Part shown: positions 1 through 12,010 of the stretch, piece by piece
Position numbering within the stretch: the stretch's first letter is position 1
How the letters are laid out: each line of letters starts with the position of its first letter
Assembly (NCBI GenBank): GCA_958009085.1
Contig: OY253671.1
Span: 1,054,001 to 1,118,000, forward strand
Reading direction: 5' to 3'
DNA length: 64,000 nucleotides
Source: Protoeuglena noctilucae
Lineage: Eukaryota
Made by a program: the position numbers and the translations under genes
The notes under the pieces: generated by a model
What the model was told of the DNA's origin: nothing
The model's input: only the letters and a program-made list of their open reading frames with translations
Databases searched by the model: none

Positions 1-628
1 ACGGCTATGCACCCTTTTGCAAGGTAAGCGGGGTGCTGCTCCACAGCGGCTGTCCCCCTGTGGGGTGGGCAACGACGCGACGGCACTGTGCGACGCTTGC
101 CCGCAGCACATCTTCGTCCCCAACTTCGTGGGCGCCAAAGTCGGGGCTCTGCGAATTACGGCGTCCAACCGCAGCCTGCTGCGTAGCGGCTATCGGCGCC
201 GGCGGCCGGAGGAGCTCGCCGTCCTGAGCCGGTGGTTTGACCGAGCGGATGTGGAGCCTCCACTGGCCAAAATGCTCGACGTCATCCTCTACTCGCGAGA
301 GCAAATCCTCAAGGAGTACGAGGCGCTCCCCGCCGCCGACAAGTCGGGTCCCGCGGTGCCGGACGCCCCCTGGGGCATCATCTCCATCAAGGCCCAGGAC
401 GAGGACTACGAGACGCCGGTGACTGGCTGCGCTATCGAAGACGGCATGTATTAGGAATGCGCCGCGGCTCTCCAGGGTCCCTTGCGCGTCTCTCGCATGC
501 AGATGCAGCCCATCACGATCATGAGGAACTCGCTCGGCCGAGAGGAGGGCGGCAGCGGGGTGCCTCTGGACCGCGAGGCGTACGAAGCGTCCTGCGCGTT
601 TTGGGAAGAGCATGCCATCATTTCCTGA
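1..628 (+). CDS. DUF3228-family protein (flagellar-associated FAP151-like), 5'-partial
   Basis: Exons 1-23, 107-418 and 503-628 joined by GT-AG introns give GYAPFCK|HIFVPNF...LRSGYRRRRPEELAVLSRWF...LDVILYSREQI...WGIISIKAQDEDYETP|MQPITIMRNSLGREEGGSGVPLDREAYEASCAFW. These motifs are typical of DUF3228. Confidence 0.85.
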
Positions 629-1184
629 GCCTATCGCGTCACTGCGTCGCCAGGCTTTCGCGAGCTTGCGAAAGTCTTGTGACATTTAAGGGATTTATGC
701 GGAAGGCGACCAGGGATGACCTGGGCGGCCCGCTGTGGCCCGCTGTCGGGGATTCCGAGCAAGCCATCCCTCGAAATCGCTCGCAACGCGGTCCCGCACA
801 CGACCGCGCCCGACATTTCGCGCCGCGTGCCGATAAAAGGGCGAGATCCGCTTTTGTTTTCTGACACCCGGGAGATCCCGCGCCTCGGGGTGTCGTGGAG
901 CCATCGGGGCACGCGAATCGACTGTCGTTGCACCGATCGACGTCGGCAGTGACGCTCGCCTGCCGTGCGTCCCTCTCGCGAGCAGACGGCGGGCAACAAG
1001 ATCCACAGACCTTGGGCACTCGCCTGGCGCTACCTGCGCTGCATCAGAAGTGCGCAGCCGCCTGCGTGAGCGAGCGGGACGGCGCGGGGGGCCGGTGATG
1101 CGAAGGAGCGGGGAGTGGGCCTGAGGGCAGCGGCGTGAGCTGGCAGGTCCCAGGCCTGTGCCCGACCGCCCCAGCCCAGGCGAC

Positions 1185-4100
1185 ATGGAGGCGGGGGTCC
1201 CGCAGGTCCCAGAAGTCGACATCCCAGATGTCTACACCCTCAAGGTGCCATGGCCCAGCCGCGGAGGGCGCTGGCCCCGGTCTAGGAGGGGCACGGGCAT
1301 GGCTAGTCCAGCAGCACTGCCAGCCTGAGCCCCGCCATGGGTGCCGTCGCCTTCACCGCCAGCGCCGCCCGTGCGCAGAGGCAGCGAGCGCGCTGTTCAC
1401 GCGCTCCCGCGTGCCGCCTACCGCCGCAGGCCGACACCGAGCTCCCGCTTCGTCAGATTGACAACCTGGCCATCTTCCGTTCTCGGGAGGACGGCAGCAG
1501 GGAGATGTGCACGCTCGATGAGGCCCTGGAACTCGAGCCGCTTCGACTGGGGGGAGCGCGGCCGGGCGGTCGTGGGCGTGCCGCACAGCGCGAGGCCCCC
1601 CGGGTCTCCATGACCGGCGTGCTGCACTGCCTGGGAGAGGAGGAGGCGGGCCACCCACCCCTGAGAGTCGAGCTGGGGCCGCCGAGAGACTGGTGCATTG
1701 AGCACGACCAGCTGCCCTGCATTTGGATCGTTACCGACCACGGTGAGGGCGCGGCAGGGCCAGGGGGAGGGAAGCAGGGTGCCACAGGGTGCCGTGCGTG
1801 CATGAAACGCGCACGGCTCCGGCGTCCACGCAGGCTGGTACCGCGTTGCCAGGACGGACAGCGCCTTCTCGCGCAGCTGGTGGGCGACACAGCGCAAGTT
1901 TGACCTGGCGACCCGTGCGGCGCGAGGTGGGAGCCGTGCCCTTGCATGTTCGCGCTCGCCCCATGCAACCTGTGGCCGCTTGCTTCCCTGACCGGTTTCC
2001 ACTTAAATGCTTCCCTTGCTTGCAGCTGCCGAGGACTGCGCTCAATGGTCATGGGAGGACGCGGTACAGGCGAGCCTCGTGCCTGACCAAGTGGTGCCCG
2101 AGCTGGGGTCTGCGGAGAACACGTCCTTCGACAGCCAAGGCACCTACAGCCGGGTACGGCTGTGACCGCTCGCATCGCCTGGTGCACCTTTTCGGCAGCA
2201 CCTCTCCACCATGTGTCACACCTGTGCTGCCGTCGCCCTCACTCGCTTCTCAGCGTTGCCTTCCACGCCCGCAGACGGAGGTCCAAGAGGAGCTGTCGTT
2301 CATCTACTGGCAGCTCAAGGCACTCGCCGGCGCAGGCCGGTTTTGCCAAACCGTGTCCCAGGGCATCGCTGCCATGGACTCCCTGCCGGTGAGCTCGACT
2401 GCCAGGATTCAGTGTGGCTGCTGAGCATGGAATGGCCAATCTCGCTCACAGCGTCGACTGCGACCCAATCGCTCGAGGCTCATGCCACACGAACCCCAGC
2501 ACAAGAGGGACTGAGACCTATCCGCCGAAGGCCATAACACCGGTGCTGCTTTGCGTCCCCAGGCTCCCCCGGAGTCGCGCCTCGGGACCCAGGCAGAGCT
2601 GTACAGGGCCCCGACGGGCAGAGACACAGGGGCGCATCGGGCCCGCGAGTCGCCTCCTCGGGCGCGACCCTTCTCAGCAGACCTGAATGACGCACAGAGC
2701 CGGGGCCCGCCGCCACCGCTTCACCGGGCGTTCAAGAGCCCTCCCGAGCTCCGCGGAGACATTCTGGCCATCTGGGACCTGACGCAGTCGTTCGGGGCCT
2801 TGCTGGGCATCCCGCCCATGCCTCTGTGGCGCCTCGAGGCAGCGCTGTGCCAGGAGACGTCGTGGCTGTCGCCGCCGGAACGCAGCACGGGGTGAGTTGA
2901 GCCGCAGCAGCCCCCACAACAACACCGGCGAGAGAGTCGCCAGCCCCGGCGTGTGACTGCGTTGGGCCGACACGCTCCCTGCCCTTTGCTGTCGCCCGCA
3001 GTGGCCCGGCCCCAGAGCGGCCTGGGCATGACGAGCACTCAACGTGGGAGATGGAAATGGAGAGGGCCAATCTCCTGCAGATGGCGCCCTTGGACCTCTT
3101 GCAGAAGCGCCTGCGCCAGGAAGCGGGGGGCGCGGACGCGACTGTCACCCTGGCGCACAACAGGTGAGTCAGAGAGCGGAGACCGCCTGTGGCGTGGCAG
3201 CGGTCGCTGGGTGTGACTATAGGAGGAGACGTGTACGTCATATTGTGGTGCTTGCGGCCTTGTACGCAATCCCGCATTTAACTCCCCGCAGACCCGACTG
3301 GGACGCCGGGGGTGACCCTGCCTCCGCCGACCCGCCCGGCGCATCGACGTTCGCCCTGGGGGCCTGGGGCCACGACGCCATGGCCAACGCGGCCGTGCTC
3401 AGCGACGTCCATGCGGGCCTCCTCCGCGTGATGGACCTTCCCGAGGACGCCATCTCAGCCATGCCGCCACGGGTGCGTGCTCACGCGCAATCGGCACACC
3501 CGGCAGCGGAGCCCGCAACTGCCCGCTAGCTCCGGTGACTTGCCGCAACCGAGGTCGCGATGCTGGCACTGCTGACTCGCTGCCGCCCGGCCCCTCTCGC
3601 AGCCCAATTGCCACCGTGCCGTGGGCCCACCCCAGTCGCTGTGGGTGACGGGAGTCATTGCTGCGGTTGGGAGCGCGCCCACGGAGCTCGTCAGCAAAGA
3701 GGCGTACGAAGCCCTGCGCGAGCTCCAAACCAAGGTGGGCGGGTTGCAACATGCTCGTCGCCTCCAGCACTGCCCCCTTCGCTATCCAGCTGGCGGGGTC
3801 GACGTATGGGCTCTTGCCATTCCATGGCTGAGCCTGTTGCTCCTCTCGCAGGACTACTTCTTCCTGTCGAGCGCGGCGCGCGTGGCATTACTCAAAGCAC
3901 TGGCCGACGTGGCCGTCATGTCTCCAGCCTTCCGGCGAGCGCTGCAGGCGCGGACTGAGGATAAGAGCGCCATGCCAACCACCCCCGACCTGCAGGCGAG
4001 CGATCGTCGATGCTGCGACGGTGGTGGCGCGACGTGCATGGCGTCATCATCTGGCCTCAACCCATGTCTTTGAACCAGCTGACCCACCATGCTCGCGCGT

Positions 4101-7100
4101 GCCCCCCGCAGCCCCCGGCACGCGCCCAGGAGGCCTCCTCCCACGTCATCGGCGCACCTGCGCCCTCCCCCGTCATCGAGGGCCTCCCTGCAACGTGGAG
4201 ACAGGGCCACGCAGCTGGCTCCTCCGTGAGCCCGACCCTCCCCGTGCTTCCCGAGCACGCCCCTGCGCTCGTGCTCGCGACGCCAAAGGACCCAGAGCAC
4301 GTCCCGGTCGGCGCAGTCCACGCTCCGCTCGACGCCTGGGCCGTCCGGGCCCTGGAGCTGGGGGCGGGTGCCAACCGGCCCCTGGGGTCGGATTTCTTTG
4401 GCAGGCGCTTCTGGGCCCTCGGCGCGACCACGGGCGTTACGCGCGTGTACGTGGAGAACCCCAGCATGGGGTCCTGGGGCTGGTACGAGGCACATGAGTT
4501 GGCGGAGGTGGCGCTGTGGGTTCGACGGGGTGGCATCGCTGGGGAGGCGAGGCTGGCCGAGGCCCTGGACGCCCTGGCCTCGGCGGCGCGCGAGGCGAGC
4601 GTGCTGCGGGGCCCCGCGGGTGGCAGCGCCTCCGAGAGTGCCTGGGAGGCCGAGCGCGGTGGCGGGTCGGCGCACGGCGCACCGTCGCACGGCCCTGGGG
4701 TCGCCCTGGGTCTCATGCCTGCTGCGCATGTGGCTACGGACAGCGAGACGGGAGCCGTCGCGGGGTATCGGACGTCGGAAGAGGATGCGGACCGTTTCAA
4801 GCGCCCTGGGCGAGCGTCGCTGGAGATGTCTGGGCGCGACGGCTATGAGGGAGTGGTCTGCCCCTTCCTCTGGGGCTGCTGGGAGTCTGACGTCTGCGAC
4901 CTGACCCAGGTGAGCTGGCTACCGAGGGTTGGGTGTCAACCCCAGGGACCGTAGCCGGCCACGGCACGTGCCTGTGCTGCGCCCGTGAGCAACAAAGATC
5001 CTGTATCGCGCAGGCCTATCGTGCAGATGACGGCCGGCTTCCCCCGTGCCCGCAGCCGCCCCTGCGTACGCTCCAGTCGGCGCTGGGTGCCACACTCGCG
5101 GCGCTGCCGTTCTGGGAGCAGGACGCGGCCCTCGGCTCGCGCGTCGTGGAGATCGCAAACCAGTGCGCAGCCATGCTGCGAGAGCTGGGCGAGAGGGGGA
5201 TGCTGGAGGTGACTGCTGGAGTTGTGGAGCTTGGCCTGATTGTCGGCATGTGCGCCAAACAGACCCATCTATGTATGTTACCCGTGCACCCGCAGGCGCC
5301 CCCCGCCGCCCTCACCGCCCTGGCAGAGTCCCTCGCCTCCACCCACCACCTGTCGCCCTCCTTTGCGGCAATTCACCGCGCCTGGTCCGCCCACGCCTCG
5401 GCGGTTCGGACGACCGAGGACGCCCTCCGCTCGCTCCTGGTCCTCCAGCACTACGTCTCGGTCCCCGAGCTCATCCGAAGGGACGTGTTCCTGGCGCTGG
5501 GCGCGGAGAGCCAGGGGGCCCGCTACTGCCCCGGCCCGGGCGACCAGGTCGCCGTCGCCATCACCGGGGCCGCGGCGCACGTGGCGCACTTCCTGGACAA
5601 CATCCCCGCGGGGCATGCCCTGCTGCGGCGCCTGCAGGACATGCTCCAAGCGGGGGAGTACGCCGGCATCTACCGTGTGGCCTTGGTCGCCTTCTACGGT
5701 GGCCTCAAGAGCGGGAACATCCTCACGGACAGGCGAGCTGCAAAAGGCATTTGGAAAAGCTGCCCTCGGTTCCGATGCCGCGCTATGACGTCCTCTTACA
5801 CGATGCTGGGTTAGGCACCGTGCTTTGCGTGCGCTAACCATGCTCGTGTCCTTGTGGTTTCTCCTGACCGAGCGGCTCCTGTCAACTACTGCTGCGCAGA
5901 CCCCCAGGCCGGCCCCAGCGCCTCGACAACTGCGACGGCCTCGGCCCTTTGGCCCTCCTGGGCGGTGGCTTGTATGGCTTCCCTGCGTGCTGGGTTTTGC
6001 TGCAGCCCTTGGAGCACATCCAAGCGCCGCCCCTGGCGCTGCCCATCCACATCGGCGGGCCTGGTCCGGACTTCCTCGTGCGCAAGGGCATCTTCTCCGC
6101 GTCGATGCGGGTGCCCTACGCGCCGGGGGACGCCGTCCGCCTGAGGGTGCTGCCCGTGCCCGGGAAGGGCCTCACGTGGATTGCGGGCAGGGTGGTATCC
6201 GCCCGGCCGGGCATCCGCAGGCAGAGCTCGGGGACGCCCCGGGGGGCGTCGGAGGCAGCGGGTGCGGCGGGGAGAGGAGAGGGAGAGGACCGGGGGCATG
6301 CGGTGGAGGGAGGCGCTGGGAAGGATTCATCCTACGTAGAGCGGGGGGTGCGAAAGCGGGTGGCGGAGGGCGAGGGAGTTGGCCGCGGTGCGGGTGTGGG
6401 TTTGCGTGCGGAGGCAGACGCCAAGCGGTCACGGGGCGGGGCAGAACGGACGACGAGCGTGGCCGAGTCGCCGTCATGGGCGGGGGATCCGCTGCGGGCA
6501 GTGCTGGGTTCGGGAGTGGGAGTGGGGCCGAGTTATGCGTCCGCCGTGGCGCTGCGGGGCATAGACGCCGCGTCGCATGAGCCCGCGGGGGCAGGGGCAG
6601 TTGCGGCAGCGCCCGTGCCGATGGCGGGTCTCACTCCCACCTCTGGGAGCCTCGGGGAGCTGGGGGAGGCGAGGGGCGTGGAAGGGTCTCCTGGGGCATC
6701 GAGCGGGTCGACGGAGGGTGCAGGACCGAGCGAGAGGAGGGCTGCGGTGGCCGCCGACCCGTGGCTCAGTCTGGGTGAGAGGCGAGATTGGTAGAGATAT
6801 TGCTTGGGCTAAGGGAGATGCTGGGCTTACCCGTAGCCAGACATGGTGCCAATGCCCCTCTGCGCAGAGGTGGAGTGGGAGGCGGGTGACAGCCGGTCGC
6901 GATCGGCCCCGACTCAGGTGTGCCCCTGGGACGTCGAGCCAGGGCACGACGCAGCCGGGACGGGCACGACCGCACGGGGCCACGCGCAGGCCATGAACCG
7001 GGGCCTCTCGGCGCTGCTGGCGGCGAAGCGGGCCGCCGCGGAGGGCCCGGACACCCCAGGCCCTTACCCAGGCCACGCGCCCACGAGGGTCGTGCCACGC

Positions 7101-8666
7101 CCGGTGGCCCCGGCGGCCGTGGCCCAGATCGGGGCGCTGTTCGGGGCCCAGGGTCCCGGCACGGCGGCCCCGTCCCTGCCCGCCGCGTTCGCCAACGCCA
7201 TCGCCGAGCACCCCTGCGCGCGTGTGAGCGACGCGGTGCTGGCCACGATCGGCAGCCGCGACCGCTTCCTCGACCTCCTGTCGTCCTACCACCGGTGGCA
7301 CGGCCTGCGCCTCAAGGTCCCCACATTTGCGTACGCCGAGCTCGACCTGTGGACCGTATTTGTGGAGGTGGCGCGTAGGGGTGGCTACGCGGCCGTCACC
7401 AACAGCAAGGCGAGCGACGTGGCATGCCAGTGCCTGCATGCGTGGTGGGCCTATCTTGAGCTGATTTCGAAACTAATGGTGCTTGGCCAACGTCGCAGAT
7501 GTGGAAGGCGGTGTGCGACAAGCTCCGCCTCGATTTGCGCGGCCAGACGAGCGCCAGCTACTCGATGCGCAACAACTACGAGCGGTGCCTGCTGCCCTTC
7601 GAGAACCACCTCATCCGCAATGACCTCGAGGGCCTAACCAACTTCCCACACACCCCCAGGCGAGCAAGGGCCAGCCCTCCAATGTGCTCACCCTCGCCAC
7701 TCCACTGTGGCTCACCTGCGGCTCACAATCGATAGTCATACGTATCGTCTAGCTCTCGGCGTGCCTCGCAGTTTCCATGCCCAGACCCCCGCGGCGATCT
7801 TGGACCCCCACACGTCCGAGGGAGATGCGGTGATCGCTGCCAGGGAGGCACGCAAGGGACCCCCCAAAGAGGACGCACCCGGCCTCGCGAGGCGGTACCC
7901 GAAGCTCGCGCAGTTCGGCACGACATTCCTCGCGATGAAGGTACGAGCGCCAGCATAACGCACTTTGCCACCACTGCTGCAACCGGCACCTGCCACCGAC
8001 CCATTCCCTTGCGCCAGCTGCGCTGCAATCGCACCCCCCGCGCACCTTTGCTCGGCCTGCGTCGCATGCTGACCAGCCTGCGCCCCGACTGCCCCCGCAG
8101 GACTTCCACGAGTCGCCGACCATTGGGGCCGACCTGGTCTCCATGGGCCGGCACCTGGTGGGGTACCTTCTGTGGCGGTTCTGGGAAGACTTCGAGCAGT
8201 GGTTTCCTGCCGTCATCGCCGACTTCAACTACGAGACCGGGGAGCATCTGCTCGTGTACGACGTCGGGTCAGAGGTGCGTTTGGTACTGTGACGTCAACA
8301 TCAGGGTAGCTTCTCGATGCTCGTGGGGTTAGGTGCCGTGAGCTGGCGGGCCAGACGATGAGGGTTGGCATGTCGCGCTCAGAGACCGTGCACTGCGCAT
8401 GCCTTCGCTCGGCATGACTGTGCGTTCATGCCGCCCTGCCGCAGGAGGAGTCGATGGAGTGGGCCGACCTGCGGGAGTTCAAACTGGACGAGCTGCGGTG
8501 CCTGAAACCGCGCAGCGCCTCGTCCCCGATGCCGCCCCGGGTGTCGGTGGTGGCGGGGCCGGTGCCGCCGGCGGACGAGGACGCGCCACGGCCGCAGGGC
8601 CGAGCGACGCGCATGCAGCTCCGGCGCCGGCAGGGCGACGGGGACGGGGAGGACGAGCTGGAGTGA
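1185..8666 (+). CDS. Large multi-exon chromatin protein: RFTS(DNMT1-RFD)-DDT-WHIM1-WSD-BRWD/PHIP-like Tudor-ARID-Agenet/Tudor
   Basis: RFTS-like ~1440-1925 (LPLRQIDNLAIF...RVELGPPRDWCIE...IWIVTDH|GWYRV...KFDLA). DDT ~2750-3435 (GDILAIWDLTQSFGALLGIPPMPLWRLEAAL...LSDVHAGLLR). WHIM1 ~3852-3945 (YFFLSSAARVALLKALAD). WSD ~4370-4540 (RPLGSDFFGRRFWALG...VYVE...WGWY). BRWD-type Tudor ~5520-6950. ARID ~7255-7615 (LDLWTVFVEVARRGGYAAVTNSK|MWKAVCDKL...ASYSMRNNYERCLLPFE). Agenet-like ~8120-8500 (LVGYLLWRFWEDFEQWFPAVIADFNYETGEHLLVYD). Start codon uncertain. Confidence 0.75.
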
Positions 8667-9066
8667 GGGCCGTCAGAACCCGAAGGGGCTTTCTTTCCAC
8701 CACACCCCAGACGTTTTCCAAGAGTTTTGGGTAGTTAGTTCCCACTGCGTTCGTGCCACGGCCACCGCTGGCCTGCCCTTCCCTGCTTTCCCTTTCCTGT
8801 TCCATCTCAGCAGCGCAGTGGCGGCGGCATGGCGACGGCATGCGGCGTGAGATTTCACTCAAGCAACACACTTGCCACCACACGCGACACGTTGCACACC
8901 CTCGCCTCATCACAACTCCAGCGGCATTTGAAGAGCAGCGTGCGTGCACTGCACAGGTGTCCCTGTGCAGGGCGCTGAGGCAGCAATCACGTCGCCAGCT
9001 GTTCTATCACGCATGCCACAAGGTTCAGGTCGCACGCAGCGTTGCGCCGCCATACACAGCGGCACG

Positions 9067-10497
9067 TCACAGCTGCATGAGCTTCAGCGTGTCCTGGACC
9101 TGCTCTGCGTTCACCTCCATGGCCTGCACGATGGCCTCGTCCTCCATCACACGCGCGGCCCTGCAGCCGCACGCAGAGAGCTTTCTTCGAGACGCTTTCG
9201 ACGCTCTCCGCGAAGGCGATCCCATCGCGCGCCCCTCACCGCTCGGCCTCCAGCTCGACCCGGATGGCCCGCAGCTCGTCCATCACCGCCTGCTCAAATG
9301 CCTCGGCGTCCTGTGCCCGGGCCGCAATGGCGTCCTTCAGCTCCTGCTCCACCCTGCGCACCGCCCCGTCCCTGGCCGACTTGTCCGCCTCCCATGCGTC
9401 GAACACGCGGCGCATGTCGCCGGACACCTGGAAGGACGGGCAGCCTGCTGGCACTTGGCACACGGAGCTGAGGCTGCCGCAAAGGGCCTTCCTGTGGCAC
9501 TCGCGTGTCACAGAAAGCGTCGACATCGCCGCATCCATCCGCCATGCTGCTCCCCACTCGCCTTCTCTGCGACGCGGTTCTCGCTCTCCAGCCTCTGCAC
9601 CCGCTCCTCCTCCACCCGCCTCCCCAGCGCCTCGACACGCTCCAGCACGGCGCGTGCAAGGACCTGGCCCTCTGCGCGTCTCGTTTCTCCCTCGCGTTTG
9701 ACGGACGCCGAGACGGTGGCCAGCTCCCGGTGCAGCGAATCTAGCGCCTCCTTCACGTTGGCCTGGAGGTCCATCAGGCGCGCCTCCAAACGCTCCGCCA
9801 CTTGCCCAGTCCGCTTCTCCACCAAAGCACGCAGCTTCTGGTCCTCGTTCTCTCGGCGCTGCGCGGCGGGGGGCGGGGGGCGGGCGATGCATCAGGACCC
9901 TCTCACGTGGCCCGGACGAGGTCCGGAGGTGCCGGCGGCCACGAGCGGGCCTCTTTGCCCCTGGTGACCGCGTCCCCGCCGAGGTGTTCGCACGGACCTT
10001 GCTCTCAGACAGTATCTCCGCCTCCAATTTCAGCACCATCTCCTGGAGATGCTGCTGCTTCTCGGCCTCGTGTTGGCGCCTGTGGCGGACGTCCTCGTGC
10101 AGGGCTTTGTTGAAAGCCTCGAGCCTGTCGGCCATCGCTGCGAGCTGAGCGGAGGACTTCCTGCGCGGGGAGGCGGACGGGGTTTGCTGGGAGGGGCGCG
10201 CGGAGCCAGGGCATCGTGTGGATGGAGCTGCATCGCAAAGGCCAGTGTGGGGCCCGACGATCCCGTCCGGGCGTCCCCGGGCAGCGATCGACAATTGGTG
10301 ACCGCATATGCAGGGCACACGTGGTCCGGCAGGAAAAGCGGCCACCGATGCGAGCGTCCGCACCTCCGGTGTTGAGACGTCAGGGGATTGACGTGGGAAG
10401 CCGATGCTGGCCTGTTGCTGCTCGAGGGCGCCAGCTCCCCATACCGGTATCCCTCCTGGTCCCCGACGGGAGGGGCGAACGGCCGGACCGAGTCCAT
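9067..10497 (-). CDS. SF-assemblin/beta-giardin-like coiled-coil protein
   Basis: Ser/Pro-rich head followed by coiled coil (MADRLEAFNKALHEDVRHRRQHE...LEAEILSESK). C-terminus DELRAIRVELEAER|AARVMEDEAIVQAMEVNAEQVQDTLKLMQL* resembles the SF-assemblin tail. 5' end uncertain. Confidence 0.7.
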
Positions 10498-10869
10498 CGG
10501 GCTCAGTGTTGGCGACAGCTCGCGTTTGAAAAGTTTGAGCTTCGTTCAGGAGCCACGGCCTTTGGAACACCATGCAGGCGTCAGTTTCGCGCAGACAGAC
10601 CCGCAGACCCGCGTGGCGCGTGATAGAAGGCAGGTAGAACCCATGGCATGACAGCTGCCGTGCGTGTCTGGCGTCGACCCAGGTTGAAACGCGGCCGATG
10701 GAGCATTTGTCACAATCACGACGTTCTCTCACATGACTACGACTTCCCAGACGATCCTGTGCTTGCGGCAGCCGTGACAAGCTCTGTTTTGGCCGTCCAA
10801 ACCGCGGCGCCGTAGCCCACTCGCGCCTCGTCGCCTCGCGTGGGCCCGGGCGGCCGGGACCACTCTGCC

Positions 10870-12010
10870 ATGTCAGTTACGTGCTCCGCGTCCTGGTGGG
10901 CCGCGCTCCCCACGTGTCGCTGTTCAACGCGGCGCTGGACTGCATCGAGGCCGCAGCCGAGGCCCTTGCGCGCAATGTCGGGCAGGGAAGTGCCCGGTGA
11001 CGAAATTCCCGTGTACTTTGGAAGGAAGAGCAAGACGTGGCTGAAAATGCGCGCCGACTTCTGCAAGGACCTCGCGACGGCGATGGGGTGACGGCAGGCA
11101 GCGGGTGCTGCCGCGTGTATGCCGGCCGTCCTGCCTGTTGAGGCGTAGCTTCGCATCGCATTAAGCCACTCGCGATCGATGCACGGCTCCCCGGCGCGTG
11201 TTCCGCAGGAAGCTGCCGGAGACGCAGGTGGACGCGGTGGTGCCGCTGCTGCGCGAGGACATGCAGGCGTCTCTGAGGACGATTCGGTCCCTGGATGCAC
11301 GCAACAGAGGGCGTTTCCGAGAAGAGAATAACCTGGCCGGGATGCTGAGGCGCGTGAGCCGCTCCAGCCTTGCATGCATGGGTCCCGAGCGCTTGCAGCA
11401 CTGCGCGCTCGCGAGCACCGCATGCCGCGCTGCTCTCCTCAGGACCCTGAAGGCCGAGGAGCTCGAGGAGATCCACGCGGTGGTCGCGAAGGGGTCCGTG
11501 GGGTCGGCGAACGCGGCGGACGAGCGGGTGGAGGCCCTGGCGCTCGAATGGCGAGAGGCGCTCATCCGCGGCGACTCGGAGGCGACCACGCGGGTGATGG
11601 GCCTGGCGGTGGAGATGGTGCAGGCGCCGGGGGAGCTGCAGCAGCTGGTGCGCACCGCGCAGGCGGACCGATCCCAGGCCGCGTTCTTCGCTGGGGCGGC
11701 GGAGGATGCGGACAGGGAGACCTCCCCAGCGGAGAGCACCTCCTCCGAGGACGATCGGGACACGCAAGTGCTCGACGAGTTCACGGGCATCTTGTCCCGC
11801 ATCAAGGAAGTGCGGCTGCACAAGGCTCGCCGGGTGAGGAGCGCCCCTGCATTGCGCGCCGTGCTTTGTTTCAGCGCACCACGTGGACGCCGGCAGCTTC
11901 AGTGGTGGCTTTGACGCCCGCAGGTGAAGGGCAAGGGTGGGCGCAAACTCCTCCAGGCGCTAAGACCGATTGCCGAGCACTGGCTGGCACGCAAGGACCC
12001 CGTGGAGTGA
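10870..12010 (+). CDS. YjgA/DarP (DUF615) ribosome-biogenesis-factor-like protein with probable organellar transit peptide
   Basis: R/S-rich N-terminus, then RKSKTWLKMRADFCKDLATAMG|KLP...RGRFREENNLAGMLR...ALEWREALIRGD...ELQQLVRTAQ...|GGRKLLQALRP. This parallels YjgA SKSQRKR...RRRQ.YIGKLMR...EQWRDRL...LRQLIR...RELF. Introns 11088-11208, 11350-11442 and 11834-11923. Confidence 0.65.

Follow-up and report, generated by a model that had tools for sequence, protein, structure and literature searches.

A green-algal gene joining RFTS, DDT-WHIM-WSD, double Tudor, ARID and Tudor modules in one predicted ISWI-associated chromatin protein

We analysed a stretch of 64,000 nucleotides (nt) from Protoeuglena noctilucae (GenBank assembly GCA_958009085.1, contig OY253671.1, positions 1,054,001 to 1,118,000 of the forward strand), called the window below; coordinates count from its first letter. 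Near its start, between a DUF3228-family gene and an SF-assemblin gene, lies one expressed gene of 19 exons, whose product of ~1,728 amino acids (aa) has no enzymatic domain. The order of its modules is RFTS, DDT, WHIM1, WSD, a double Tudor of the ARF/PHIP type, ARID and a Tudor of the PDS5C type. The protein adds one more member to a variant of the DDT-WHIM family that is green-algal and uncharacterised, and by analogy with characterised members it probably acts as an accessory subunit of an ISWI-type spacing remodeller, equipped with a DNA anchor, readers of methylated H3K4 and RFTS targeting. The parts of the gene and of its product are as follows.

939-1244, plus strand: exon 1 (predicted), 5' untranslated region (UTR) and ATG at 1185; donor AAG/GTGCCA at 1244/1245, alternative donor at 1190
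1430-1742, 1834-1926 and 2026-2153, plus strand: exons 2-4 (introns predicted), RFTS module (DNMT1-RFD-like), aa 21-193
2275-2388, plus strand: exon 5, linker; RNA piece 2274-2387 of X1 record 1, joint 2387>2562
2563-2891, 3002-3163, 3292-3472, 3603-3734 and 3852-3995, plus strand: exons 6-10, from RNA joints
4112-4909, 5056-5208, 5296-5732, 5900-6774 and 6868-7409, plus strand: exons 11-15, from RNA joints
7499-7659, 7772-7940, 8101-8274 and 8445-8666 (stop 8664-8666), plus strand: exons 16-19, from RNA joints and the database protein P0121
8667-8965, plus strand: 3' UTR; contigs end at 8923 (X3 record 15), 8943 (X2 record 9) and 8965 (X4 record 18)
2740-2853, plus strand: DDT, aa 296-333; Pfam PF02791, 21.4-21.8 bits, E 2e-4, cut-off 22; 65 bits in the matching segment of the family hidden Markov model (HMM)
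3852-3956, plus strand: WHIM1, aa 505-539, by homology through the alignment with the relative P0002
4379-4582, plus strand: WSD, aa 642-709; Pfam PF15613, 32.0 bits, cut-off 25.4
5518-5703, 5976-6212 and 6756-6774 + 6868-6941, plus strand: double Tudor, similar to ARF DD-AD and the PHIP cTudor, by alignment, profile and fold search
6213-6755, plus strand: 181-aa insertion rich in Gly, Ala, Ser and Arg in the second Tudor barrel; frame 5868-6794 open
7227-7624, split by the GC-AG intron 7410-7498, plus strand: ARID, aa 1427-1529; Pfam PF01388
8137-8498, split by the intron 8275-8444, plus strand: C-terminal single Tudor, aa 1610-1673, by profile match to PDB 7de9

The interval 600-9600 is partly present (0.23-0.61 of the sampled words) in four marine metatranscriptome runs and fully present in four runs labelled with one organism. 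Our RNA sources, X1 to X4, are four marine metatranscriptome runs from one study and at most three samples. RNA contigs of X1, X3 and X4 contain 14 plus-strand joints, from 2387 to 8443, each seen in one to three runs. Once ambiguity at the joints is allowed for, all 14 resolve to introns (ten GT-AG, four GC-AG) with the consensus G/G[TC]GAG...CGCAG/, and they include every one of the 13 introns between exons 6 and 19. Joined from 2563 onward, the exons read in a single frame of 1492 open codons down to the stop at 8664-8666, and the other two frames hold 12 and 15 stops. The length of an open reading frame (ORF) says little by itself at this locus, because long stop-free stretches run in all frames of the first 12 kb of the window (63-73% G+C); a word-indexed search of longer proteins with the raw ORF 4891-5814 returned no match. 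The same kind of search with the ARID exon, in which only 12 candidates were scored and which is thus no census of the family, found P0121, a 431-aa database protein from a 1652-nt JGI contig. P0121 agrees letter for letter with the C-terminal 431 residues of the spliced model and so confirms the final five introns as well as the stop. The GC-AG introns (3996-4111, 5733-5899, 7410-7498 and 7660-7771) make up 4 of the 14 RNA-supported introns and share the donor AG/GCGAGC; their usual share in eukaryotes is ~1%, and the high share here may be a property of a G+C-rich genome.

A preliminary description of this DNA, made from its letters, had proposed a single gene with this module order and with coding bounds of 1185..8666. 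Both proposals hold: the 14 RNA introns, the single frame, the identity with P0121 and the collinear match of a family profile (see below) agree on one gene, its coding region runs from the ATG at 1185 to the stop at 8664-8666, and all the peptide strings quoted in that description are found in the spliced product. That two adjacent genes, one for RFTS-DDT-WHIM and one for ARID-Tudor, have been merged here is extremely improbable. Such a merger would fit the lack of any listed RNA contig bridging 6273-6326, where record 1 of X1 (3664 nt, from upstream of 2274) ends at ~6272 and record 2 (2338 nt, reaching 9159) starts at 6327. However, the frame 5868-6794 stays open across this gap, record 6 of X2 covers 6287-6650 unspliced (unspliced RNA pieces also cover 6327-6773), the second Tudor barrel starts before the gap and ends after it, and full-length relatives carry all the modules in one protein. 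The gap is also G+C-rich, low-complexity sequence, a common place for assemblies of short reads to be interrupted.

The WSD exon, used as query in an exhaustive HMMER search, matched 74 proteins at E<=1e-3, one of them an identical fragment from the same organism. Pfam scans of 20 of the longer matches at E<=0.01 found DNMT1-RFD in 11/20, DDT in 14/20, WSD in 19/20 and ARID in 10/20; RFD, DDT, WSD and ARID occur together in 6/20, and P0125 and P0126 have the same architecture. ARF_AD and/or BRWD_AD was matched in 10 of the 20, above the cut-off in 4/20 for ARF_AD and in 0/20 for BRWD_AD. A profile built from 16 relatives, with the window protein left out, scores 526 bits against the spliced model, summed over five collinear segments, which cover RFTS (aa 21-193, 33 bits), DDT (263-332), WHIM-WSD-Tudor (426-1115), the end of the Tudor (1295-1341), and ARID with the C-terminal Tudor (1425-1673). 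The closest relative, P0002 from Pedinophyceae sp. YPF-701, aligns to aa 86-1095 of the model at 30% identity (E 8e-87), with 42% identity in the C-terminal Tudor; its modules are a bromodomain, RFD, DDT, WHIM1, WSD, the double Tudor and the C-terminal Tudor.

Of the 20 relatives, 5 carry a bromodomain, as do P0125 and P0114 (for P0114 from a precomputed Pfam list). The full-length relative P0126 has none, and its RFD begins at aa 21. Because the feature varies within the family, the membership of the window protein stands without it. A tblastn search with the N-termini of seven relatives reached E 0.03-0.07 at best, and seven upstream ORFs held no Pfam bromodomain; we judged the tblastn matches spurious, including one at 532-780, around and just past the end of the DUF3228 gene. 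Members with a named source come from Pedinophyceae sp. YPF-701, [Myrmecia] bisecta, Haematococcus lacustris, Picochlorum spp., Nannochloris sp. 'desiccata' and Micractinium tetrahymenae, all of which we take to be green algae. One of their entries is titled 'ARID domain-containing protein, partial', and all the others 'hypothetical', 'unnamed' or 'uncharacterized'. A search for the same architecture across chlorophytes was suggested in the preliminary description; several green-algal 'hypothetical' proteins have it. P0126 gave no usable match in the ESM Atlas. One metagenome locus (L001) was discarded as a chance match: it lies on a 70% G+C contig with bacterial-type ORFs (TrkA-like, sigma-factor-like), and the shared peptide falls in an unrelated frame.

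Read directly on the window, Pfam (15 raw ORF pieces and 11 codon-aligned exon pieces) recognises the WSD and both halves of the ARID, the latter at 32.1-33.8 and 24.6 bits (cut-off 24.1) and at 67 bits on the spliced P0121. The best PDB match of the ARID is ARID5B/MRF2 (E 1.6e-10); ARID4/RBBP1, with its Tudor-ARID-chromobarrel order, was set aside as a model, its ARID matching weakly (E ~1e-4) against the 1.6e-10 of ARID5B. For WHIM1, aa 717-763 of P0002, which include its Pfam WHIM1 at 720-751, align to 3831-3971 at 38% identity (E 3e-5). At E<=10, none of the 11 single-exon pieces had a Pfam match for RFTS, WHIM1, the double Tudor or the C-terminal Tudor, and single exons searched against the PDB returned chance-level matches only (SH3RF1 E 0.29, haemoglobin E 0.1, SGF29 E 0.72). 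Because single exons give no Pfam match, RFTS, WHIM1 and both Tudor modules were established through the family instead. No BAH or C5 cytosine methyltransferase domain was matched by Pfam in the 15 ORF pieces, the 11 exon pieces or 20+3+3 relatives, in agreement with the preliminary description; by the family profile the coding length is fully taken up by other modules, none of them a methyltransferase. WD40 and bromodomain matches were absent from the ORFs and exons of the window, and B3 and PB1 matches from the window and the 20 relatives.

The double Tudor was aligned from seven relatives and the three window pieces. Its profile matches structures of ARF DNA-binding domains in the PDB (E 9.5e-9 to 6e-3) over the ancillary domain (AD), and aa 5-34 of P0121 match the end of Pfam ARF_AD at 14.4 bits. 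An AF2 model of this region from the Haematococcus relative (pLDDT 72.8) was used for fold comparison. In Foldseek, the top 12 matches listed (ranks 1-14) are all ARF DNA-binding domains (E 1.6e-6 to 3e-5), followed by tandem Agenet and Tudor folds at E>0.01. VIA-align places ARF1 (4ldx_A) alone above the background of ~7, at Z 11.4 over 167 residues with a root-mean-square deviation of 3.7 (model 1-234 against ARF1 21-356); the next match has Z 7.1. The family profile and the model thus match the ARF DNA-binding domain over both DD and AD. The B3 insertion in the DD and the PB1 domain are ARF features that the window protein lacks, and the alignment skips the B3 of ARF1 (167/332 residues aligned).

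The DD-AD of ARFs has been argued to descend from the cryptic Tudor of PHIP/BRWD proteins (PMC11685440, 2024), and the PHIP cTudor is described as a histone-reading double Tudor homologous to it (PMC11685440). The BRWD/PHIP-type label given to this region in the preliminary description is therefore right in substance, the fold being that of the ARF DD-AD, but Pfam BRWD_AD stays under its cut-off in all 20 relatives (11.7-18.7 bits where it is matched, cut-off 40). No PHIP/BRWD chain is among the matches listed from the PDB profile search, Foldseek and VIA-align, which says nothing on relatedness. The double Tudor is common to PHIP/BRWD proteins and the window protein, whereas the WD40 propeller and tandem bromodomains of PHIP are absent from the latter. 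The loop of the second barrel seems to tolerate large disordered inserts, and P0002 has an even longer insertion in the same loop than the 181 residues of the window copy.

The likeness to ARFs invites a different account of the whole protein, as a sequence-guided transcriptional regulator in which the double Tudor is an ARF-like scaffold or dimerisation module that presents the ARID, as ARFs present B3, and the DDT/WHIM part is a platform without ISWI. The fold match across both DD and AD of ARF1 (Z 11.4) would fit this account, as would the position of the ARID ~100 aa downstream of the AD and the divergent cage-region residues of the window copy. The cage of the ARF AD has moreover been described as blocked and its role as that of a scaffold, with the DD as a dimerisation surface (PMC11685440). 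However, the same source reports that the ARF-specific dimerisation helix is absent from PHIP-type cTudors (PMC11685440), and DDT, WHIM1 and WSD, a trio that marks ISWI partners in characterised proteins (PMC10396365), co-occur across the family. We consider such a regulator quite unlikely and favour an ISWI accessory subunit.

For the C-terminal Tudor, a small domain-limited profile matches 7de9 at E 1.9e-7, with Tudors of the SMN type following at E>0.1; P0121 alone reaches E 0.27 against 7de9. No Pfam Agenet, Tudor or ENT match was found for this domain on the exons, P0121 or the relatives (E<=1 to 10). The EML-type Agenet proposed earlier is thus not supported; the closest solved relative is the Tudor of PDS5C/RDM15. 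7DE9 is the Tudor of Arabidopsis PDS5C/RDM15 bound to H3K4me1 (bioRxiv 10.1101/2022.05.28.493846; PMC13361950). Aromatic residues are kept between the two, with FW / QWF / VYD in the window protein at the positions of WW / AYY / IYD in 7DE9, whereas the host protein of the Arabidopsis domain is a cohesin regulator, unlike the window protein. An AF2 model of the C-terminal Tudor (pLDDT 64.5, first strands modelled as helices) was too poor for a fold comparison and was set aside.

Up to now the RFTS has been regarded as a DNMT1/MET1 device by which DNA methylation is copied after replication; its ligand class in DNMT1 is the ubiquitinated H3 tail or PAF15-like proteins. A search of the PDB with the full-length family profile was swamped by bromodomain matches, and we therefore used domain-limited alignments for the double Tudor and the C-terminal Tudor. 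For the RFTS, the full-length profile itself matched four chains of DNMT1 (E 8-9e-14) within residues ~340-558, with residues ~371-523 matched at E 8e-14, and Pfam RFD (PF12047) reaches 50.8 bits in relatives. The RFTS segment of the window keeps the motif W..T..(G)WY..(A)R. The RFTS call of the preliminary description is thus borne out, by the profile match to DNMT1 RFTS (E 8e-14) and by DNMT1-RFD in 11/20 relatives. The window family accordingly shares a homologous domain with DNMT1/MET1 (PDB 9m5x, 9v4o, 9pec), a likeness seen at the level of the family profile, the window exon alone having neither a Pfam nor a PDB match. In DNMT1/MET1, BAH and C5-methyltransferase domains follow the RFTS; in the window protein there are none.

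The same description had the protein read marks tied to the maintenance of DNA methylation. This is weakly founded, with the RFTS as its sole basis: the two Tudor modules are both similar to H3K4-methyl readers, and their nearest characterised relatives bind methylated H3K4. A related alternative keeps the ISWI accessory subunit and makes the RFTS an intramolecular plug or an extra binder of the H3 tail, with no link to DNA-methylation maintenance. The RFTS auto-inhibits DNMT1, and the gene encodes neither a methyltransferase nor a BAH domain; the mark to which both Tudor modules point is, besides, one of active chromatin (PMC13361950). On the other side, the RFTS occupies the same position in 11/20 relatives and the window copy keeps W..T..(A/G)WY, and because position and motif are conserved across the family, a conserved RFTS ligand can be argued. 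We hold the plug or H3-tail binder to be somewhat unlikely, and prefer an accessory subunit in which the RFTS has a targeting role.

At the 5' end, an in-frame stop at 1122-1124 precedes the ATG at 1185. The contig of X3 is unspliced over 949-1234, and the depth bins of X1 fit a contig start near 939. Upstream of 2275 the X1 contig holds 840 nt at a flat depth of 25, which allows a bin mean to be converted into the length that is covered. The means of the bins at 1503-1803, 1804-2104 and 2105-2405 (19.8, 14.3 and 13.4) match exons ending at 1742, spanning 1834-1926 and spanning 2026-2153 within 1-3 nt, and exons 2-4 are all flanked by consensus splice sites. By tblastn, aa 282-315 of P0002 map to 1634-1735 and aa 319-348 to 1836-1925, the Pfam RFD of P0002 lying at aa 279-360. 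Two solutions for the first intron fit the bins, 1244>1430 and 1190>1379/1385, both with the start at ATG 1185; we favour 1244>1430 because the X3 contig runs unspliced through 949-1234. The alternatives differ in ~20 N-terminal residues only, and the family-profile score is 525.5-526.2 bits either way.

The gene is bounded on both sides, because the DUF3228 gene ends at 628 and a minus-strand SF-assemblin gene lies downstream. The upstream neighbour (2-628, plus strand) is the 3' part of a DUF3228-family gene, two ORF pieces of which score 133.7 and 68.7 bits, with the profile match ending at the stop 626-628. The downstream neighbour (8914-10876, minus strand) is an SF-assemblin (striated-fibre) gene whose joint 9159>9239 reads CT..AC. 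Its poly(A) site is marked by a loose poly-T end at 8914, and both genes are traversed by one X1 contig; because contigs of the plus-strand gene end at 8923-8965, the 3' ends of the two genes overlap by ~10-50 nt. Another X1 contig (depth 21.2) joins 9435 to 1426 through 31 foreign letters and diverges after 1444; most likely it is an SF-assemblin-type transcript with a 19-nt chance match (1426-1444). The E2F-type site noticed earlier, TTTCGCGC, is present at 816-823, ~120 nt upstream of the RNA contig starts, but such sites are no more frequent than expected by chance: the window has 7 copies of TTTSGCGC where 5.5 are expected, and 29/100 shuffles reach 7. E2F-driven expression in S phase was set aside as a reading for this reason. 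Beside this octamer, ~100 nt upstream of the contig starts, lies a TATA-like ATAAAAG (833-839).

DDT-WHIM proteins determine at which sites and in what way nucleosomes are spaced by ISWI motors, and every characterised one is reported to bind an ISWI-type ATPase and linker DNA. The likeness of the window protein to the DDT-WHIM partners of ISWI (the ACF1/BAZ, WSTF, Itc1, RLT and DDR types) includes a WSD that passes its cut-off. In Arabidopsis, DDT proteins contact ISWI at its SLIDE domain, and RLT1/2 and ARID5 are both subunits of the CRA complex (PMC10396365), ARID5 being a reader of H3K4me3 and AT-rich DNA (PMC13361950). On these grounds we propose an accessory role for the window protein. 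The Arabidopsis CRA complex (CHR11/17, RLT1/2, ARID5, FHA2) thus shows the same combination of DDT-WHIM, ARID and a reader of methylated H3K4 (PMC10396365, PMC13361950). In Arabidopsis, however, these functions are spread over different subunits, with a PHD finger as the reader and a homeodomain in RLT, whereas the window protein is one chain with Tudor-type readers and an added RFTS, and its ISWI binding is predicted. In the proposed mechanism the DDT/WHIM/WSD core would bind an ISWI-type ATPase and linker DNA, as an accessory or 'ruler' subunit; the ARID would anchor the complex on DNA; methylated H3K4 would be the docking site of the C-terminal Tudor and perhaps of the double Tudor as well; and the RFTS, free of a methyltransferase, could recruit the complex to chromatin that has just been replicated, by way of the ligand class of the DNMT1 RFTS.

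Several observations weigh against this proposal. The ISWI partnership is a reasonable inference from DDT/WHIM/WSD, drawn by analogy, and two parts of that core are modest in the window copy: the DDT scores 0.2 bits under the Pfam cut-off, which relatives pass (e.g. 39.2 bits), and WHIM1 is placed by homology only, with no Pfam match on the window exon at E<=10. The reader function of the double Tudor may be affected in this species. The 181-aa low-complexity insertion interrupts its second barrel, and because the conserved GDRF[RK]MF[FIV] of the family diverges to GDAVRLRV, with the preceding W replaced by Y, the methyl-lysine cage of this barrel may be degenerate here. The N-terminal bromodomain of some relatives is apparently missing from the window copy, and in P0002 no ARID is detectable by Pfam or by alignment to the model, through either loss or a gene model that skips its exons. 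As for the gene model itself, we infer the four 5'-most introns and the exact ~20 N-terminal residues from depth bins and splice consensus, and none of the RNA pieces listed covers 6273-6286, 14 nt of G/A-rich low-complexity coding sequence inside the frame open over 5868-6794.

Parts of this architecture have been noticed before. Mutte et al. (2018; eLife, PMC5873896) noted from transcriptomes a chlorophyte protein with an 'AD flanked by ARID' as a possible source of ARF sub-domains, and the 2024 paper called such AD+ARID occurrences scattered (PMC11685440). The protein of Mutte et al. is almost certainly of the same family as the window protein, but the available part of that paper makes no mention of RFTS, DDT/WHIM/WSD, the DD-like Tudor, the C-terminal Tudor or the optional bromodomain (PMC5873896). 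The suggestion that the combination is new therefore stands in part. The AD+ARID protein and full-length hypothetical proteins in databases preceded it, but in a literature search that covered few subscription journals we found no paper on a fusion of RFTS/RFD with DDT/WHIM/ARID.

Huff and Zilberman reportedly described, in 2014, linker-restricted DNA methylation together with tight nucleosome phasing in algae of the DNMT5 type. The Ostreococcus lucimarinus lineage is listed as having lost DNMT1 and kept DNMT5 (PMC10538959). If the family had a member in that lineage, it would be a candidate for the spacing machinery behind such methylation and phasing. A far-reaching and speculative extension, which we consider quite unlikely at present, is that the RFTS in green algae works independently of methyltransferases and steers an ISWI-type spacing complex to freshly replicated chromatin, where nucleosomes would be re-spaced. 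If this were true, ubiquitinated H3 or PAF15-type ligands, which elsewhere serve as a replication-coupled signal for DNMT1 recruitment, would be reused for nucleosome re-spacing.

Studies of how auxin response factors originated have cited the 'AD+ARID' protein, and the family sets that protein in a fuller context. A natural fusion of this kind predicts functional coupling of its modules, and the window protein is in this sense a Rosetta-stone counterpart of the RLT-ARID5 ISWI complex of Arabidopsis. With an RFTS that has no methyltransferase attached, the family is also a test case for the ligand of this domain, and its members in culturable algae (Picochlorum, Haematococcus, Micractinium) make the predictions testable at the bench.

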